A DNA stretch of 64,000 bases from an uncultured Bacteroidales bacterium (GCA_903926565.1 CAIYJU010000052.1:18581-82580); one strand, 5' to 3'; positions 18,850 to 39,174 are shown, counted from the stretch's first letter. Notes: generated by a model from the letters alone, not told the origin. Made by a program: numbers and translations.

Positions 18850-20068
18850 TCCTTACTTAGGATTGGGCTATCGGCAACCCTCCAGTAGCCTTTTCTGGTA
18901 TTCGCAGATTCCCAGGCTTTAGGCCGTGGGATACCGAGTTTAATCAGGTTGTGGCGTTTGGATCTGATGCGTTTCCATTGTTTCCAAATCAATGATCTCA
19001 ACCGCCGTCTGAACCATTCGTCAGTTCACTCAAGCAGGATTTTCATGTCGGCAAGCCGGAAGTAATTCAGCCATCCTGTGATGAATTGGCGCAATGCTTC
19101 CTTTCTGCGTTCATTTCCCCAACCGTTGCTGCGACAGGTCAGCTCCCTGATTTTCGCATTCATCTTTTCTACGCTCTTCCGGTGAATGCGGATTTTGCAC
19201 CCATCCTTTGTAAAGTAAAATCCATACCCCAAAAACTTTACGTCTTTGATGTGGGCCACTACCGTCTTGTTTTGATTTACTTTCAGGCACAATGTACCTT
19301 CGATGTATTTCGTGATGCTTGCAAGCACCCTTGCGGCTGCCCATTCGCTTCGGCAAAATATCATACAATCGTCGGCGTACCTCACGAACCGGTGGGTTTG
19401 CAAATACAAACGCAGTGCTTCCGTATCCATCCCGTCTATCCCTCCACTCCCATTATTCCGCTTCACTTGTTTGTAAGCTGAATTTAGATTGGCAGGTGAC
19501 AGAATGTACTCAAATAGCTCTGCTCCTCCTGTCGTTATGTTGGTGTCTCCTTTTTCGGTCATCCATAGGAATGTCTGCCCTTCTGCGTAGCTTTCGAGTG
19601 CCGCTCTATCATTCTGCAAACAGGTGTCTTTATCCGTTTTCTGCTCTCTGCCATTCATACGGTAACGATCATTTGATGCTCACCTCTTAAGATTTGACCC
19701 TTCCAATATCAACCCATGGTATCGTACTATGGTCGCTGCTGACTCCTGTTGGCAATTGTTAGCCGTGTTTCTTACTCCGTTTCCACACGTCCAACAGGTC
19801 TCCCGTGGTAAACTTATTCCCTTTCATCCCAGGTAACCGCTGCATTTACACCCCAACATCCGGGTAGTTTTTGGACTTCGATTTGTCTTGCAATCTCATC
19901 CTGCCGGGTATGCCTGATGCAATTCGTGTTCCTCGGTACGGGACTTTGCCTCCTGCTTCCTTCAGATTCCGCTTCACAACGGACACCCTTGCTCCTGGCT
20001 AATGGTTGGTAACTACCGACCTCCATAAAGGACTTGCACCTTCAAGGTTATAAGTGTGCACGGCACAC
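18850..20068 (-). mobile_element. decayed group II intron (class C-like placement) inserted immediately downstream of the tRNA-Met terminator; the 3-prime boundary is approximate
   Basis: On the minus strand the terminator hairpin and U-run are followed directly by GTGTGCCGTGCAC (a GUGYG 5-prime intron consensus). An intron-encoded RT/maturase ORF lies within the element. Confidence 0.55.
19026..19658 (-). CDS. group II intron reverse transcriptase/maturase, internally deleted (RT domains 2-4 missing), probably non-functional
   Basis: ELFEYILSPANLNSAYKQVKRNNGSGGIDGMD (RT0/1) is joined directly to RFVRYADDCMIFCRS (the RT5 YADD box). The maturase X-domain motif QFITGWLNYFR is present. Total length is 210 aa against roughly 400+ aa for an intact protein. 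Confidence 0.65.
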   Translation of the reverse strand: MNGREQKTDKDTCLQNDRAALESYAEGQTFLWMTEKGDTNITTGGAELFEYILSPANLNSAYKQVKRNNGSGGIDGMDTEALRLYLQTHRFVRYADDCMIFCRSEWAAARVLASITKYIEGTLCLKVNQNKTVVAHIKDVKFLGYGFYFTKDGCKIRIHRKSVEKMNAKIRELTCRSNGWGNERRKEALRQFITGWLNYFRLADMKILLE

Positions 20069-20069
20069 A

Positions 20070-20110
20070 ACAAAAAACCACCTACAGTTTGACGTGTAAG
20101 TGGTTGATTT
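20070..20110 (-). terminator. rho-independent terminator of tRNA-Met (AACCAC...GUGGUU stem followed by U6)
   Basis: Hairpin plus T-run on the minus strand immediately 3-prime of the tRNA. Confidence 0.6.
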
Positions 20111-20115
20111 TGAAG

Positions 20116-20189
20116 TGGGCCCACTAGGACTTGAACCTAGGACCAATAGATTATGAGTCTACTGCTCTAACCATCTGAGCTATGGGCCC
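20116..20189 (-). tRNA. tRNA-Met (anticodon CAT; could alternatively be tRNA-Ile2 if lysidine-modified)
   Basis: GGGCCCATAGCTCAGATGGTTAGAGCAGTAGACTCATAATCTATTGGTCCTAGGTTCAAGTCCTAGTGGGCCCA folds as a cloverleaf: 7-bp acceptor stem, GTTCAAGTC T-loop, CTCATAA anticodon loop. Confidence 0.85.
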
Positions 20190-20194
20190 GAAAC

Positions 20195-20229
20195 GAATAT
20201 CGAATTTCGAATATTGAATATTGAATTTC
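20195..20229. repeat. heptanucleotide SSR (GAATWTY)x5 overlapping the annotated start of the HAD gene
   Basis: gaatatc gaatttc gaatatt gaatatt gaatttc read directly from the sequence. The same heptamer family recurs inside recO. Confidence 0.6.
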
Positions 20230-20993
20230 GAACTCGTTTGAGGGGCGCAAAGATAGAAATTTATTACGATTTTTGCAACCGGATATTTAATACTATTCCT
20301 TTGAAACTCAAACCGGCAAAGATTGAACAAGGTGACGCGTCACGAGTCACGAGTCACGAGTCACCTATCACGAGTCACGAAATCAAAAACATCATCTTCG
20401 ACTTTGGCGGTGTCATCTGCAACATCGATGTAACACTTACCGAAAAAGCGTTCATGGATCTCGGGTTGACAAATTATGACACCGGCCGGTCCATCGCCGA
20501 TTCCGCCGGCCTCTTCGAGGGTATCGAAACGGGGACCATCAGTTCCCGGCAATTCCGGGACGGGCTTAAACCACTGTTCAGCAACCCCGTTACGGATGAA
20601 CAGATCGATACCGCCTGGAATGCATTGCTCCTCGACATCCCCGGACCTCATATCAGAATGCTCGAAGCATTGCGGAAAAATTACCGCATTTTTCTGCTGA
20701 GTAATACCACCGAAATCCATTACCTGAAATATCTTGACGATTTCAGAAACAAATTCGGTTACGCAGGCTTTGATGCACTTTTTGAAAAAGCATATTTTTC
20801 ATTTCAGCTTGGATTGAAGAAACCTTCTCAGGAAATATTCAGGCATGTTCTACAGCAAAGCAGGCTGAACCCCGCAGAAACACTCTTTATCGACGATACC
20901 CTGAGACACGTGGAAGGCGCCAGAAAAGCGGGAATAAATGGGTATCACCTCGCGATCGGCAAGGGGGAACATATCCTTGATCTCTTTGATTAA
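20214..20993 (+). CDS. HAD-superfamily hydrolase; the real start is uncertain (TTG candidates at 20214 and 20301)
   Basis: HAD motif I IIFDFGGVI, a motif II Ser/Thr in LLSNTTE, and C-terminal motifs K...FIDDT. The N-terminal extension is encoded partly by SSRs. Confidence 0.65.
   Translation: MNIEFRTRLRGAKIEIYYDFCNRIFNTIPLKLKPAKIEQGDASRVTSHESPITSHEIKNIIFDFGGVICNIDVTLTEKAFMDLGLTNYDTGRSIADSAGLFEGIETGTISSRQFRDGLKPLFSNPVTDEQIDTAWNALLLDIPGPHIRMLEALRKNYRIFLLSNTTEIHYLKYLDDFRNKFGYAGFDALFEKAYFSFQLGLKKPSQEIFRHVLQQSRLNPAETLFIDDTLRHVEGARKAGINGYHLAIGKGEHILDLFD
20340..20381. repeat. heptanucleotide SSR (TCACGAG)x6 (4 perfect and 2 variant units) in the 5-prime region of the HAD gene
   Basis: tcacgag tcacgag tcacgag tcaccta tcacgag tcacgaa, encoding ...SRVTSHESPITSHE... 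Confidence 0.7.
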
Positions 20994-21058
20994 AAAAGAC
21001 TTGACACGCATCCAAAAAAACATTACCTTTGCCACCCCTTTTTAAACGGCAGAAAACC

Positions 21059-22108
21059 ATGAAATTATCTCAGTTTCGCTACCATCTCCCTCCAGATCTT
21101 ATCGCCAATCAGCCTTCGAAACATCGCGACGAAGTGCCCATGATCGTGCTTGACCGGAAGACACAGACCATTGAACATGCCCAGTTCAAGGACATTCTCA
21201 ACTATTTCGGAGACGGGGATGCGTTCATCATAAACAATACGAAAGTTTTTCCCGCCAGGCTATATGGGGAAAAAGAAAAAACAGGGGCCAAGATAGAAGT
21301 CTTCCTGCTCCGGGAACTGAACCGTGAATCACGGTTGTGGGATGTACTGGTTGACCCTGCCCGCAAAATAAGGATCGGCAACAAATTATATTTCGGCGAC
21401 GATGATGCGCTTGTTGCTGAAGTAATCGACAACACAACTTCGCGTGGCCGCACCATTCGATTCCTTTTCGACGGACCTTACGACGAGTTCAAAAAGACCA
21501 TTCAGCGCCTTGGGGAAACCCCGTTGCCAAAAATCCACAACCGCCAGGCCACTGTTGAAGATGAAGAACGTTATCAGACAATCTTCGCCAAACATGAAGG
21601 CGCTGTTGCCGCTCCTACGGCAGGATTGCATTTCAGCCGCGAGATCATCAAACGCCTTGAATTACAGGGAGTTTCATTTGCGGAAATCACCCTCCACCTC
21701 GGGCTCGGCAACTTCCGCACGATTGATGTGGAAGATCTGACCAAGCACAAAATGGATTCTGAGGAGATGATCATTGAACCGGAAGCCGCAGAGATCGTGA
21801 ACCGAGCCATGGCACGTAAAGGCCGTATTGTTGCGGTCGGCACAACTACGATGAAGGCCATCGAATCTTCCGTGACTGTTTCAGGAAACCTCAAACCCTA
21901 CCGGGGATGGACCAACAAGTTCATCTTTCCTCCCTATGAATTCAGCATCGCCAATGCCATGATCACCAACCTGCACATGTCACAGTCGCCGATGATGATG
22001 ATGGTGGCCGCATTTGCCGGTTACGACCTGCTGATGAAGGCGTATGACGTTGCCATCGACAAGAAGTATAAATTCTTTACCTACGGAAACCCGATGCTGA
22101 TCCTCTGA
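21059..22108 (+). CDS. queA: S-adenosylmethionine:tRNA ribosyltransferase-isomerase
   Basis: [33 protein letters not shown]..., then ...[10 protein letters not shown] and the rest of the QueA signature; about 350 aa. Confidence 0.88.
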
Positions 22109-31337: not shown

Positions 31338-33824
31338 GTGAACGAGAATATACAGGATTTAACACAGCAGCAACAGCAACAATCTGTTGACTACAAAATC
31401 ATCCTTTTCAAATTTTATCGCTTCTGGTATTTCTTTGCCATCACTATCTTTCTTGCACTCATCATCGCATTTATCTTCAACAAATACACCAAAGAGGTTT
31501 TTGAAGTAACCACAACTGTGCTCGTTAAGGATAAATCAGAAAACAAAATAAATCCCCAGGATCTGCTCGGCATGGGACTCTTCAATAACATGCAGAACCT
31601 GCAGAATGAGATCGGGATATTGTCCTCCTACACGCTTACCTATCGTGCAGTGACCAAAATCGGGTTCGAGGTTTCGTACTTTACGGAAGAGAATTTTGTT
31701 ACAAAAGAGCTTTATCTCGACAGTCCTTTCAAAGTAATCATGGATACAACGGTTCCCCAACCGGTAAACATGTTCTTTAAACTCAAGATTCTTTCGAAGG
31801 AGAAATTCAAACTGGAAACAAATGACGAGGCGATCAAATTCTTTGACTTTTCATCCCGGAAAATGGTTGAGGATCGTAAAGACAACATCGTGGTTGATCA
31901 GACCTTTTCATTCGGACAGCCGATTCAGTCAAAGCACTTCAAATTCAGGGTCATCCTTAAAGAAAAATTTGACGTGACACAGGATATCAGCAAATCCTTT
32001 TCATTTATTTTCAAGAATTATGACGCCCTCGTAACAGAGTTCAAGACATTCAACATCGAACCGATCAACAAGGAGGCATCTATCGTTGAGATAAAACTCA
32101 AAGGCGGCAATGTTGATAAACTGGTCGTATTTTTAAACACCCTCACCAAGGAGTACCTTGCCAAAGGGCTGGAAAAGAAAAACATTGTCGCATCACGCAC
32201 CATCACATTTATCGACAACGAGTTAAGAGGAATAACTGATTCCCTGAATGCCTCTGAAAAAGCCCTCATGCTTTTCAGGACCAACAAGGAGATCATGAAC
32301 CTCAACGATGAAGCCAAGCAGGTTTTCGAAAAAATGATGCAGCTTCAGGATGAGAAAGCAATTCTGATGGTTAAATCGAAATACCTTCAGAACATGAAGG
32401 AGTATATCGAAAAAAATCAGAAATTCGATGAGCTGATTGTTCCTGCATCGATGGGGATTGAAAACACGGTGCTGAACGATCTGACCATGCAGCTGACCAA
32501 CCTCTACATGAAGCGGACGGAGACCTCCCAATATTCCAAGTCGAAGAATCCCAGTCTCATGGCCATTGATTTACAGATTGCAACAACTAAAAACGCGTTG
32601 TATGAAAATGTAAAAAGTGCCATCAATTCCAATGACATTGCCCTGAAAGAGGTCAACGACAGGGTCTCCGTGATCAACTCACGCATCAGCAATCTGCCTG
32701 AAACACAGCGTGTTCTGTTTGGCATAGAACGCAAATTCAAGCTTACCGATGCCATCTACACCTACCTTTTGCAAAAACGTTCGGAGGCACAAATATCACA
32801 GGCTTCGAACCTTTCCGACAACGAGGTATTGGATGAAGCATCCTCCATCGGGCTGAAACCGGTTTTTCCGAAGAAAACGCTGAATTATGTGATCGCACTG
32901 ATACTCGGGGTCCTGATTCCGATCCTGTATATCTTTGGAAGAGATTATTTCAATGACAAGGTGATGGAGCGGGAAGACGTTGAAAAACTGACAAAACTTC
33001 CGATCGTCGGGCACATCATTCACAGTGATAAACCAAGTACGGTGGTGGTTCTTGACTCGCCGAAATCGTCCATCGCCGAGTCGTTCAGATCGGTAAGAAC
33101 CAACATTAACTACCTGCTCCAGGGAAAGGAGAAGCAAACAGTGCTGATTACAGCCGACATGGTCAATGCCGGTAAAACGTATGTTTCGATCAACCTTGCC
33201 CTCATTTTCGCCATGTATGGCAAAAAGACACTGCTCATGGGTTTTGACCTGCGGAAACCCAAAATCTTTGAAGATTTCGGATTGACAAATAAAGAGGGTA
33301 TCAGCTCCTATATCATCGGCAAAAGCAAGCTGGAAGACATCATTCAATTTTCGACCATCGAAAATCTTGACATCATCATGTCGGGCCCTGTCCCGCCAAA
33401 TCCTGCAGAATTAATTGCCTCGGCAAAGTGTTCTGAGATGTTTGCCCTTTTGAAAGAAAAATATGATTACATCATTATTGACACACCCCCTGTTGGTCTG
33501 GTGACAGATGCGTTTCTTCTTATGAAACATGCGGATGCCAACCTATTCCTGGTGCGTCAGGGCTACACCCACAAAAAAATATTCGGATCAATTATCCACG
33601 ACATGGCGCAACGCAACATCTCCAATCTGGCCATTCTGATCAACGACGTTAAACTTAACCGCAGCTCTTACGGATACGGATATGGCTATGGATATGGATA
33701 CGGGTATGGCTACGGATACGGGTCGGGTTATGGTTATGGTTATGGTTATGGTTATTATTCAGATGATAAAGAGGCGTCTAATAAAAGCAAATCATTTCTT
33801 CAGCGTGTTTTTGGAAAATCTTAG
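31338..33824 (+). CDS. Wzc-like chain-length determinant with a bacterial tyrosine (BY) kinase
   Basis: Two TM segments flank a periplasmic coiled-coil. Walker A motif GKTYVSINLA. The C-terminal tyrosine cluster appears as a (GY)n repeat. Confidence 0.8.
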   Translation: MNENIQDLTQQQQQQSVDYKIILFKFYRFWYFFAITIFLALIIAFIFNKYTKEVFEVTTTVLVKDKSENKINPQDLLGMGLFNNMQNLQNEIGILSSYTLTYRAVTKIGFEVSYFTEENFVTKELYLDSPFKVIMDTTVPQPVNMFFKLKILSKEKFKLETNDEAIKFFDFSSRKMVEDRKDNIVVDQTFSFGQPIQSKHFKFRVILKEKFDVTQDISKSFSFIFKNYDALVTEFKTFNIEPINKEASIVEIKLKGGNVDKLVVFLNTLTKEYLAKGLEKKNIVASRTITFIDNELRGITDSLNASEKALMLFRTNKEIMNLNDEAKQVFEKMMQLQDEKAILMVKSKYLQNMKEYIEKNQKFDELIVPASMGIENTVLNDLTMQLTNLYMKRTETSQYSKSKNPSLMAIDLQIATTKNALYENVKSAINSNDIALKEVNDRVSVINSRISNLPETQRVLFGIERKFKLTDAIYTYLLQKRSEAQISQASNLSDNEVLDEASSIGLKPVFPKKTLNYVIALILGVLIPILYIFGRDYFNDKVMEREDVEKLTKLPIVGHIIHSDKPSTVVVLDSPKSSIAESFRSVRTNINYLLQGKEKQTVLITADMVNAGKTYVSINLALIFAMYGKKTLLMGFDLRKPKIFEDFGLTNKEGISSYIIGKSKLEDIIQFSTIENLDIIMSGPVPPNPAELIASAKCSEMFALLKEKYDYIIIDTPPVGLVTDAFLLMKHADANLFLVRQGYTHKKIFGSIIHDMAQRNISNLAILINDVKLNRSSYGYGYGYGYGYGYGYGYGSGYGYGYGYGYYSDDKEASNKSKSFLQRVFGKS

Positions 33825-36088: not shown

Positions 36089-38458
36089 ATGAAATTTATT
36101 CGTTACATCCTTTCCTGCCTGTTTATCTTCTCAGGTTTAATACAGGCATTTTCACAACAGGTTCCCATTGGCCAGTGGCGTGATGAACTTCCCTACACCC
36201 TCGTCAACTCCCTCACGGATGCGGGCAACAGGATCTATGCATCCACACCTTATGCCATTTTTTATTATGACAAGGATGATAACAGCGTGGTACGTATCAC
36301 CAAAATCACAGGACTGTCAGACATCGGGATCAGCTGCATCAATTACAACAAAGAATACAAGACGCTTGTCATTGCCTATTCCAATGCCAACATCGATCTG
36401 ATCAAGGACAATGTCATCATTAATATCTCAGATATCAAACGCAAGCAAATCCTTGGAAATAAAACCATCAACAGCATTTACTTCATCGGAAAAGACGCAT
36501 ATCTGTCATGCGGATTTGGCATCGTCGTACTCGATATCAACAAGGAGGAGATCCGCGATACCTATTATATAGGCAAAGGTGGCAGCCAGGTGAATGTACT
36601 TGCCCTGACCAAAGACCCCCAGGATACGCTGTTTGCCGCAACCGAAAAAGGAATCTATAAAGGCTGGGCAAATGATCCCAACCTCGCAAATTTCTCCTCC
36701 TGGAAAAAAGATTCACGCATTGATACCACCGCAACATATAATTCGATTACAAGTTTTACCGGGAAAATTTTTGTCAATAAAAAGAAAAGTTCAGCAACCA
36801 CTGATACAATATGTGTCTATTCCAATGGCGCATGGAGCCGCCTGGTCCAGGAACCCTATTATCCGATCATGCACATTGAAGCAAATGACCAATACCTGGT
36901 TATTGCATATAATTATTTCGTTAAAGCCATTAACACCGGCCTTGATGTGACTACCAATGTTCCCGGGTCCGATTATCCGCTTTACGCAATTGCCGACCAG
37001 GACGGGCAGATGTGGGTGGGTGATAACTATAACGGACTTGTTAATTACATTCCCTCAACAAATGCCATCAACCACATAAAACTCAGCGGCCCGTCAACCG
37101 CGCTGGCTTTCAGCATGACCAGCAGGGGCAATGAACTCTTTGTTGCACCCGGAGGAAGAAACGGCTCCTACGGCCCCATCTACAGCCGGCCCCAGGTTTA
37201 CCACTTCAACAATACCGACTGGTATAACCTCGAAGGCTACAACAATCCCATCCTCGATATGACGCATGATGTGGTCACCATTGCCATTGATCCGAACGAC
37301 AGCAAACATGTCTTTGCAGGAACCTACGGAAAAGGGCTCGTTGAAATTTACAACGATTCAGCTGTCAGGCGGTTTACTTATGGCAACAGTACACTTCGCA
37401 ACTACTCCGGCTCAGACACCTCTGATGTGCGGGTTGGGGGTGTCGCTTATGATAACGACGGCAACCTGTGGGTGGTCAACTCCTTCAACAACAGGTGCCT
37501 CTCCATGAGAAAAGGGAATACCTGGACAGGTTTTAACATCCCTGTTGAGAGCGACCTGGGTCAGCTCCTCATCGACAGGCACAATCAGAAATGGATCCAG
37601 ATGCGCTACGGCACCATGAATGCGAATGCGCTGTTGGTCTTTACCGATAACAACACCCCTGAAAATCCAGGAGATGATGACTACAAGCTCCTGAATTCAA
37701 TGGTGGGCAGTGGTAATATCCCCGGAACAACAGTCCTGGCCATGGCCGAAGATAAGAAAGGGGAGATCTGGGTCGGTACAGAAAAAGGGATTGCTGTCTT
37801 TTATTCTCCCGAGAATGTGTTTGGCGGAGGCAACTTCGACGCCCAACGAATCCTGGTCACCCAGGGAAGCAATGTTCAATACCTGCTTGAAAATGAATCG
37901 GTCACAGCCATCGCCGTGGATGGAGCCAACCAGAAATGGGTCGGCACCGATCGTGGCGGAGTGTTCCTTTTTTCAGAAGACGGCACCAGGGAGATCTTTC
38001 ATTTTACTGCTGAAAACAGTCCGTTGCTGTCGAACAGGATTATATGCATAGCAGTGAATGCAGATGGAAATGTGTTTTTCGGCACCGACAATGGCATAAT
38101 CTCATACAGGGGTTCAGCAACACCGGGTGGTGAAACAAACGGGGAGGTATATGCCTTTCCCAATCCGGTCAGGGAAGATTACGACGGCGTGATCGCTGTT
38201 AAAGGCCTTGTCAGCAATGCAGAAGTAAGAATCACGGATGTGAATGGCACACTGGTTTTTTCAGGTCATGCAGGCAGCGTGAATTCGGGCGGAAGCACGA
38301 CAGGAGCGAACGGCCAGACAGGCGTGTATGGCGGCCAGGTTGTATGGGATGGTAAAAATTTCGACGGGAAAAAAGCCCATACCGGGGTTTACCTGGTGTT
38401 TGCGGCCGACGAAACCGGCGCCGAACGGGTGGTAACCAAAATCCTCATCGTGAACTGA
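36089..38458 (+). CDS. secreted two-component-regulator-propeller (double beta-propeller) protein with a T9SS-type C-terminal domain; possible PorZ-like T9SS component
   Basis: Signal peptide, repeated propeller blades (…MWVGDNYNGLVNY…, …WVGTEKGIAVF…), and a C-terminal beta-sandwich ending ...GVYLVFAADETGAERVVTKILIVN. Confidence 0.55.
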   Translation: MKFIRYILSCLFIFSGLIQAFSQQVPIGQWRDELPYTLVNSLTDAGNRIYASTPYAIFYYDKDDNSVVRITKITGLSDIGISCINYNKEYKTLVIAYSNANIDLIKDNVIINISDIKRKQILGNKTINSIYFIGKDAYLSCGFGIVVLDINKEEIRDTYYIGKGGSQVNVLALTKDPQDTLFAATEKGIYKGWANDPNLANFSSWKKDSRIDTTATYNSITSFTGKIFVNKKKSSATTDTICVYSNGAWSRLVQEPYYPIMHIEANDQYLVIAYNYFVKAINTGLDVTTNVPGSDYPLYAIADQDGQMWVGDNYNGLVNYIPSTNAINHIKLSGPSTALAFSMTSRGNELFVAPGGRNGSYGPIYSRPQVYHFNNTDWYNLEGYNNPILDMTHDVVTIAIDPNDSKHVFAGTYGKGLVEIYNDSAVRRFTYGNSTLRNYSGSDTSDVRVGGVAYDNDGNLWVVNSFNNRCLSMRKGNTWTGFNIPVESDLGQLLIDRHNQKWIQMRYGTMNANALLVFTDNNTPENPGDDDYKLLNSMVGSGNIPGTTVLAMAEDKKGEIWVGTEKGIAVFYSPENVFGGGNFDAQRILVTQGSNVQYLLENESVTAIAVDGANQKWVGTDRGGVFLFSEDGTREIFHFTAENSPLLSNRIICIAVNADGNVFFGTDNGIISYRGSATPGGETNGEVYAFPNPVREDYDGVIAVKGLVSNAEVRITDVNGTLVFSGHAGSVNSGGSTTGANGQTGVYGGQVVWDGKNFDGKKAHTGVYLVFAADETGAERVVTKILIVN

Positions 38459-39174
38459 TGCTTCATTCAACAAAAGGCATTGTTTTTCATTCCCTTAAAT
38501 ACTCAGAAACCAGTATCATCGTTAAAATTTACACCGATCTTTTCGGGATTCAATCTTACCTGATCAAAGGAATCCGGAATGCAAAGTCAAAAGTAAAACC
38601 CGGACTCTTCCAATCGATGACGCTGCTCGATCTCGTCGTTTACCACAAAGAAAAACAGTCGCTGCAATCAATAAAAGAGGTCCAGCTCTCCTGCCCTTTT
38701 AAAACTATTCCATTCGATATCCGTAAAAGTTCAGTGGTTATGTTTATCAACGAACTGGTTTATAAATCGATTCGTGAAGAGGAGGCAAATCCTGAACTTT
38801 TCGGTTTTCTCTGGCAATCCTGCCGTGATCTTGATGAAACTGAAGAGAGCGTATCCGGCTTTCATCTCCGTTTTTCCCTTCAGCTGATGCAATACCTTGG
38901 GATCTTTCCTCAGAACAACAGGGCTGACAGTTTTCCAATATTTAACCTGCGTGAAGGATGTTTTCAGGCGAGGGTTCCAAATCATCCCCATTACCTTGAC
39001 CCGGAGCAGAGCAGGGTGTTTTCTGAGATACTGGATATGAATATCGAATATCGAATATTGAATATCGAATATCGAAGGAAGATTCTTGAAACCATCCTTC
39101 TTTATTACCAGTTGCACCTGCCCGGGTTCAAAGGAGTTCAATCGCATCACATCCTCCATGATGTGTTGGCCTAA
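38458..39174 (+). CDS. recO: DNA repair protein RecO
   Basis: An N-terminal OB-fold region ([20 protein letters not shown]...) followed by a helical C-terminal domain; 238 aa. Confidence 0.78.
39039..39073. repeat. heptanucleotide SSR (GAATATC)x5 inside the recO coding sequence
   Basis: gaatatc gaatatc gaatatt gaatatc gaatatc, encoding [13 protein letters not shown]. Confidence 0.65.

Follow-up and report, generated by a model that had tools for sequence, protein, structure and literature searches.

Heptanucleotide repeat arrays in a tRNA(CAT) leader and in the N-terminal linker of a HAD phosphatase from uncultured Bacteroidales

The window, meaning the whole 64,000-nt stretch of DNA analysed here, comes from an uncultured Bacteroidales bacterium (GCA_903926565.1, CAIYJU010000052.1:18581-82580). 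It contains a tRNA(CAT) gene and a HAD-superfamily phosphatase gene in divergent orientation, and two arrays of 7-nt units (tracts 1 and 2) lie within the tRNA/HAD region. The HAD gene (to 20993) is followed on the plus strand by queA and ispD, and this order is conserved in relatives. Related loci are numbered with the prefix L and database proteins with the prefix P. The features are:

19026-20075, minus strand: group II intron remnant (Rfam RF02001 at 19812-19983; 210-aa RT/maturase fragment at 19026-19658)
20115-20189, minus strand: tRNA gene with anticodon CAT, called tRNA-Met (ARAGORN; Rfam RF00005, 73.9 bits)
20190-20246, minus strand: 5′ leader of the tRNA precursor, with a hairpin that stops 1 nt short of the mature 5′ end (folding)
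20194-20236, unstranded: tract 1, a degenerate heptamer array of 5-6 CGAATWT-like units (direct reading, TRF)
20248-20255, minus strand: TATCTTTG, putative Bacteroidetes-type -7 box (TAnnTTTG) of the tRNA gene, conserved in 106 related contexts
20264-20278, unstranded: conserved block TTACGATTTTTGCAA, nearly invariant in an 8-locus alignment
20301-20993, plus strand: HAD-superfamily (YihX-like) phosphatase gene, 230 aa from a predicted TTG start at 20301-20303 (Pfam, alignment to the ATG of orthologues, frame statistics)
20333-20381, plus strand: tract 2, seven heptamer units coding ASRVTSHESPITSHE in the linker of the N-terminal extension (direct reading, TRF)
20391-20414, plus strand: HAD motif I (IIFDFGGV), invariant in alignment A1
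39035-39076, plus strand: third heptamer array, (GAATATC)x6, 42 nt, with the unit of tract 1 and in frame in recO (TRF, reading)

Tract 1 reads GAATATC, GAATTTC, GAATATT, GAATATT, GAATTTC over 20195-20229 and ends in a degenerate sixth unit, GAACTCG (20230-20236). Tract 2 opens with a degenerate unit, TGACGCG (20333-20339), and continues over 20340-20381 as three TCACGAG units followed by TCACCTA, TCACGAG and TCACGAA; it is impure, with two variant units, and repeats perfectly over at most 26 nt (~3.7 units). TRF assigned period 7 to both, with 5.6 copies and a score of 50 for tract 1 and 6.6 copies and a score of 64 for tract 2. Our own period scan found exactly three period-7 runs in the window, namely the two tracts and the recO array. 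Three runs scored at least 14, versus none in 100 dinucleotide-preserving shuffles of the window, where the best run scored 11. The two heptamer tracts reported in a first-pass annotation of this DNA are thus real, no shuffle having matched their scores. Nor are they an assembly artefact, because two independent assemblies (L164 from ENA and L166 from Logan) carry the same DNA, with 100% identity across 1952 and 2480 nt respectively, tracts included. The Logan contig, otherwise identical to the window, stops inside tract 1, its position 1 corresponding to window position 20200; this could reflect a break of the assembly graph at the repeat or simply low coverage.

Tract 1 and the tRNA(CAT) leader

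The tRNA(CAT) is not an initiator, because its G1-C72 is paired; it is either an elongator Met or an Ile2 tRNA. In the tRNA orientation TATCTTTG is followed by 57 nt and then by the mature 5′ end. The sequence TAnnTTTG is the Bacteroidetes -7 promoter consensus. Since tract 1 lies downstream of this box, it would be inside the transcribed leader. On the minus strand, the conserved block TTACGATTTTTGCAA may serve as the -33 TTG region for the tRNA gene, and on the plus strand it probably supplies the HAD promoter with a -7-like element. A sigma-70 promoter scan of 19900-21100 returned no promoter in the intergenic region, an uninformative outcome because Bacteroidetes promoters follow another consensus, and TAnnTTTG boxes were therefore read directly.

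Tract 1 makes up most of the stem of the leader hairpin, which has an MFE of -14.3 kcal/mol and a z-score of -4.38 relative to 200 dinucleotide shuffles. Among 96 distinct related leaders, a hairpin is found at the same position beside the tRNA (mean z of -2.3, with 54% below -2), with unrelated sequences; the leaders measure 11-80 nt and are too variable in length and sequence for alignment. Conservation of the tRNA(CAT) leader hairpin across Bacteroidota relatives is thus one of position and not of sequence. No such hairpin was observed beside the Ser and Phe tRNAs of these loci, of which there are few. Of 112 distinct tRNA-CAT contexts, 16 have a heptamer array at this place in the leader, versus none of 22 other tRNAs; the arrays are often CGTAATT-like in the tRNA orientation. 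L165, a relative of 85% identity, matches the window in the unit number of tract 1.

The first-pass annotation had placed tract 1 in the start region of the HAD gene. Tract 1 belongs instead to the leader of the divergent tRNA(CAT) gene and not to HAD translation. The HAD reading frame merely happens to be open through the tract; TGA occurs there in both other plus-strand frames, and orthologues do not keep the upstream ORF.

On its other side the tRNA gene is followed by a hairpin resembling an intrinsic terminator (20105-20076, minus strand) and then by the group II intron remnant, a placement directly after a terminator that is typical of class C introns. Of the RVT_1 profile, the 210-aa RT/maturase ORF covers just the final third, which suggests an internal deletion of the intron. 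A strain with an identical QueA protein has a different gene upstream in place of the remnant.

Start codon and reading frame of the HAD gene

The HAD gene product, a predicted phosphatase, matches Pfam families PF00702 (8.8e-13) and PF13419 (2.2e-10). With the YihX-type phosphatases (the alpha-D-glucose-1-phosphatase family, HAD subfamily IA) it shares the HAD fold, these profiles, an FDxGxV motif I with its aspartate and a core of ~200 aa. The clade of the window differs from YihX-type phosphatases in its upstream start and in a repeat-hosting extension, which separates the start codon from motif I by 16 to 58 codons.

As was first noted, the window has no ATG ahead of motif I; the accompanying claim that tract 1 overlaps the only start candidates was mistaken. 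In-frame TTG codons lie upstream of motif I at 20214, 20238 and 20301. The longest ORF begins at the first of these, inside tract 1, and public gene calls for the window allele use the second, which gives 251 aa and lies upstream of the putative promoter block. The third aligns with the ATG of L001, L003, L005, L086, L091 and L167 (window TTG AAA CTC AAA C against ATG CAC CTC AAC C), and L163 and L165, the closest relatives with DNA, likewise have TTG at the equivalent of 20301. Homologues of 59-95% identity open with M-[EKH]-L-N-L-A-K-I, continue with a short variable stretch and then reach IKNIIFDFGG; the N-terminal peptide M-x-L-N-L-A-K-I is conserved at the amino acid level. Distant homologues lack the extension and open M-x-IKNIIFDFGG, which indicates that this HAD clade has lost the old start beside motif I and now uses the upstream one.

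The frame was evaluated at each distinct locus with adjacent tRNA and HAD genes, taking the first ATG past the conserved promoter box regardless of frame. This ATG was in frame with motif I at 41 of 47 testable loci (from ~66 orthologous loci) versus one-third expected, a count over phylogenetically related loci that are not independent events. L008 and L017 are among the cases where the in-frame start sits farther downstream. The HAD frame is open through the arrays in all examined loci but L167. Judged by this alignment and frame comparison, HAD translation probably starts at TTG 20301, upstream of tract 2, at a codon homologous to the ATG of orthologues; the peptide predicted if translation begins there opens MKLKPAKIEQGDASR... 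We correct the gene start to TTG 20301 (230 aa), replacing both the database call (20238) and the start of the longest ORF (20214). With this start, tract 2 lies within translated sequence near the 5′ end of the HAD gene, which bears out its first placement.

A different possibility is that translation begins at a non-canonical ATC (20382) before motif I, leaving tract 2 in the 5′ UTR, where its copies would tune the spacing between promoter and start. Such a start would fit the absence of an ATG before motif I in the window and the distant homologues, which start two codons before IKN. It does not fit the upstream start, which is an ATG in most orthologues and in frame at those 41 of 47 related loci, or the conserved M-x-L-N-L-A-K-I peptide, or arrays that are open in the HAD frame save at L167, or the steps in length, which are of 21 nt (see below) and not of 7 nt. 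We consider it extremely improbable, and on the strength of frame conservation and the 21-nt ladder we rejected any non-AUG start that would leave tract 2 untranslated. Frame conservation likewise contradicts the first-pass suggestion that the tracts alter the spacing to a downstream start.

With the start at TTG 20301, tract 2 would encode part of the protein. An AF2 model of the HAD protein (31-sequence alignment) has a mean pLDDT of 87.8, with values of at least 90 for 171 of 230 residues, including most of the catalytic core. Values fall below 50 at residues 13-22, the segment coded by the tract, and also at residues 60-67 inside the domain. No significant mRNA structure was found around tract 2 (z of -0.32). 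Tract 2 is thus predicted to behave as a disordered, length-tolerant linker just before motif I.

Copy number, the 21-nt ladder and the search for out-of-frame alleles

The distance from the start codon to IIFDFGG was 48 nt at 20 loci, 69 at six, 90 at four and 111 and 174 at one each, so that 32 of the 41 in-frame loci, again related and not independent, fit the series 48+21n. Distances from the TTG starts, 90 in the window and 69 in L163 and L165, fall on the same series. Because 21 nt is three heptamers, the site would have grown by heptamers with only three-unit multiples surviving. The array units themselves vary by lineage at this one site, while the 7-nt register beside the IKN codons is kept:

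Window: TCACGAG
L165: TCACSCG
L001: GTCACCC, 18.7 units (90% matches)
L003: AATCGTC, 4.7 units
L086: AAATCTC
L107: CATCCCT
L108: GGCATCC
L167: AATCCGA, ~13 units
L005: decayed array

Many database proteins have 7-aa periodic peptides, such as NPKSEIR, IRHSSFV and SPVTRHP. Many orthologues have no array, among them the 20 loci at the 48-nt baseline. At L084 and L085 a GC-rich palindromic element coding ...DPTPGPSPQREGS... sits in the HAD N-terminal linker that elsewhere hosts heptamer arrays; the site therefore accepts several kinds of repeat.

Copy number also differs between close strains. Tract 2 has seven units in the window, L164 and L166 versus four in L163 and L165 (87-90% DNA identity), with flanks that align exactly. 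The exact window locus is present in samples ERZ18638125, ERR4195033 and ERZ1426853, and the four-unit relative in ERR3856788; the L001 lineage is represented in JGI 3300045648 and ENA ERZ27313530. A look-up of the exact QueA sequence returned a contig with identical QueA and with a HAD allele, P0001, that is 95-97% identical to that of the window. P0001 has three substitutions elsewhere and seven residues fewer in the tract (GDASPVTRHEIKN vs GDASRVTSHESPITSHEIKN), equivalent to four units, a count read back from the peptide as no DNA was available for the contig. Its occurrence beside an identical QueA indicates that copy number changes quickly; both alleles are in frame.

Simulated changes of tract 2 by one or two units in either direction gave products of 41-61 aa, and changes by three units gave 223 or 237 aa. 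The earlier statement that any change in copy number shifts the frame holds, then, for changes of one or two units. This bears on the proposal, made in the first-pass annotation, that the locus is phase-variable, with slippage of one or two units in tract 2 switching the HAD phosphatase off and on reversibly as a form of bet-hedging. Two of its parts stood. Tract 2 lies between TTG 20301 and motif I, where a one-unit change alters the frame, as at a contingency locus, and very close strains are polymorphic in copy number (7 vs 4). Arrays also persist at the HAD site in many lineages, some of them long and pure (L001, 18.7 units), and phase variation by a coding heptanucleotide repeat is known for Neisseria meningitidis pglE (PMC7157529).

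The part that found no support concerns the alleles themselves. ON and OFF alleles were not seen together in populations: no frameshifted allele was found in ~66 distinct orthologous loci or among database proteins of at least 85% identity, all from consensus assemblies, which cannot reveal minority out-of-frame variants and could miss low-frequency switching. The alleles, also at the consensus level, differ in length by multiples of 21 nt only. The window tract is interrupted, with 3.7 perfect units, and its sequence is identical in three assemblies. The nearly pure 19-unit array of L001 should be highly mutable. This allele (P0007, P0244) was nevertheless invariant over ~21 contig records, and no length variant of it was found in its 90% cluster; the exact 251-aa product of the window allele is recorded on seven contigs. 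Exact-protein look-ups recover same-length alleles only, which biases such counts of invariant contigs. Finally, the product is a cytoplasmic phosphatase of housekeeping type in conserved synteny with tRNA, queA and ispD, and not a surface or restriction-modification gene. Phase variation of the HAD locus is mechanically possible but unsupported, and we regard a true contingency locus as unlikely. Out-of-frame subpopulations, if they do exist, would make the locus an unusual example of an environmental bacterium with a phase-variable metabolic enzyme.

Two kinds of candidate allele were rejected. P0104 (193 aa) is not a frameshifted allele: its locus, L167, is in frame, and a TGA lies inside a variant unit. 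The array there (L167 161-320) has ~13 AATCCGA units, one of them a CTGA variant that creates the in-frame TGA, at 3x coverage. This apparent null allele, which is not a slippage product, may represent either a genuine pseudogene or an error in sequencing. Length variants in the clusters of ten orthologues were alternative start calls, none of them a change in copy number; the exception among cluster members is P0249 (163 aa), an N-terminally incomplete sequence.

Heptamer arrays in related Bacteroidales and their interpretation

Heptamer units had been described as rare, which is wrong for this group. In 1.24 Mb of related Bacteroidales loci, tandem tracts of at least three copies numbered 25 for period 7 versus 5, 4 and 2 for periods 5, 6 and 8, making period 7 the commonest among periods 5-12; period 4 had 27. 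A metagenome contig scan returned no close relatives (best identity 68%) and served clade-wide statistics only. The tracts exceed chance, and their class is enriched (three tracts in the 64-kb window); both are heptanucleotide long simple sequence repeats (SSRs), a further case of a known class. These uncultured Bacteroidales (Prolixibacteraceae-like) genomes can be flagged as rich in heptamer repeats.

The third array of the window codes 14 aa of RecO (gene at 38458-39174). The length of RecO homologues varies between 231 and 282 aa, and it does so exactly at the array site, where several have heptamer-coded 7-aa repeats. Peptide repeats observed at that site include PSPVPRP and ASRIPHP (heptamer-coded). 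RecO homologues also carry GRDVACNVS repeats, which, judging from the protein, would back-translate to a palindrome.

Our preferred reading, to which we give a probability of about 0.7, is that slippage-prone heptamer repeats are tolerated in this lineage where length is unimportant, and that tract 2 is locked in frame by purifying selection. Replication slippage would generate and resize heptamer arrays, a repeat class common in this Bacteroidales lineage. Tract 1 would lie within the tRNA(CAT) leader hairpin and be removed by RNase P, as in standard tRNA maturation. Tract 2 would lie in a disordered linker between the M-x-L-N-L-A-K-I peptide and the YihX-like catalytic core, where changes of one or two units would truncate the enzyme and be purged by selection and three-unit changes (21 nt, 7 aa) would persist. 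Selective persistence of three-unit changes would then explain both the quantised lengths across species and the 4- versus 7-unit alleles. That adaptive switching is absent is an inference, as is the placement of the promoters. On this reading the site is a clean natural example of reading-frame selection acting as a filter on 7-nt slippage, with protein lengths in a clade set on a 21-nt ladder. What stands out most is this ladder, together with the repeated appearance of arrays at orthologous sites.

Against mere tolerance, arrays recur at the same two sites in many lineages, and this recurrence could point to selection for mutability or to a cis-acting function. The arrays might be binding sites for an RNA- or DNA-binding regulator, as has been proposed for TAACTGA repeats (PMC4679880). 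Their recurrence across species at two fixed positions of the divergent tRNA/HAD region would agree with this, as would the CGTAATT-type units in tRNA leaders of several species and the inverted pairs at L051 and L080. It is countered by the units at the tract 2 site, which are wholly different between species while the 7-nt periodicity and the reading frame are kept, and by the position of tract 2, 30-80 nt past the start codon and not before it, in RNA without significant structure. No candidate binding protein was identified, and many orthologues, including the 20 loci at 48 nt, are arrayless. We hold such a binding-site role to be quite improbable. Maintenance of the arrays as evolvable devices seems similarly improbable: these would be an ON/OFF or linker-length switch for the HAD protein and a tunable hairpin in the tRNA(CAT) leader, possibly involving a lineage-specific factor for 7-nt arrays. 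A factor that recognises or generates 7-nt arrays would explain the unrelated units at the same orthologous sites and the inverted pairs elsewhere.

The reading of tolerated, frame-filtered slippage agrees with what is known of long SSRs. According to PMC4679880, which cites Mrazek 2007, heptamers are the most abundant class of long SSRs in most genomes surveyed, and coding regions favour frame-compatible repeat lengths. As far as that account goes, the arrays described here resemble those SSRs in being head-to-tail, beyond chance and dominant among longer units, in keeping frame-compatible lengths in coding sequence, and in having slippage as proposed generator. They differ from them in lying at orthologous sites (a tRNA leader hairpin and an enzyme linker) in many uncultured Bacteroidales species. 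In the long-SSR papers compared, we found no description of recurrence at orthologous sites, unit turnover or 21-nt quantisation.

Phase variation by heptanucleotides in coding regions is established for N. meningitidis pglE (PMC7157529) and is described for variants of the Haemophilus influenzae IgA protease (PMC8178019). As in the HAD gene, a 7-nt unit lies in the 5′ part of the ORF. At those loci both ON and OFF alleles occur, within single isolates as well as between them, and the genes serve surface-modifying or virulence functions, whereas the HAD locus has in-frame alleles only (at the consensus level), an impure tract and a cytoplasmic phosphatase as its product.

TAACTGA arrays lie upstream of start codons in Beggiatoaceae, Cyanobacteria and some Bacteroidetes (PMC4679880). 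Together with the cyanobacterial STRR heptamers they are, like the arrays here, dispersed tandem heptamers that sometimes form inverted arrays, and they occur mostly in non-coding DNA near gene starts. The STRR units are CCCCAGT, TTGGTCA and CAACAGT. Unlike in these families, the window units are CGAATWT and TCACGAG and no single unit dominates across species; tract 2 is coding and begins 30 nt past the start codon, and tract 1 lies in the leader of a tRNA gene on the opposite strand.

Inverted heptamer arrays were observed at two related loci. At L051 (15361-15506) arrays of (AATTACG)n and (CGTAATT)n flank 87 nt of non-tRNA sequence, and at L080 (4545-4804) arrays of (AATTATG)n and (CATAATT)n flank 198 nt of non-tRNA sequence; both resemble terminal inverted repeats built of heptamers. 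Tracts 1 and 2 were considered as an inverted pair of this type and rejected, since their units are not complementary. A repeat of another period occurs elsewhere in the window, where a hexamer/18-mer repeat (33669-33755) lies in an 828-aa ORF (31338-33824) and codes its tyrosine cluster, a C-terminal (GY)n stretch. The ORF resembles a polysaccharide co-polymerase/tyrosine kinase, and the repeat is an ordinary feature.
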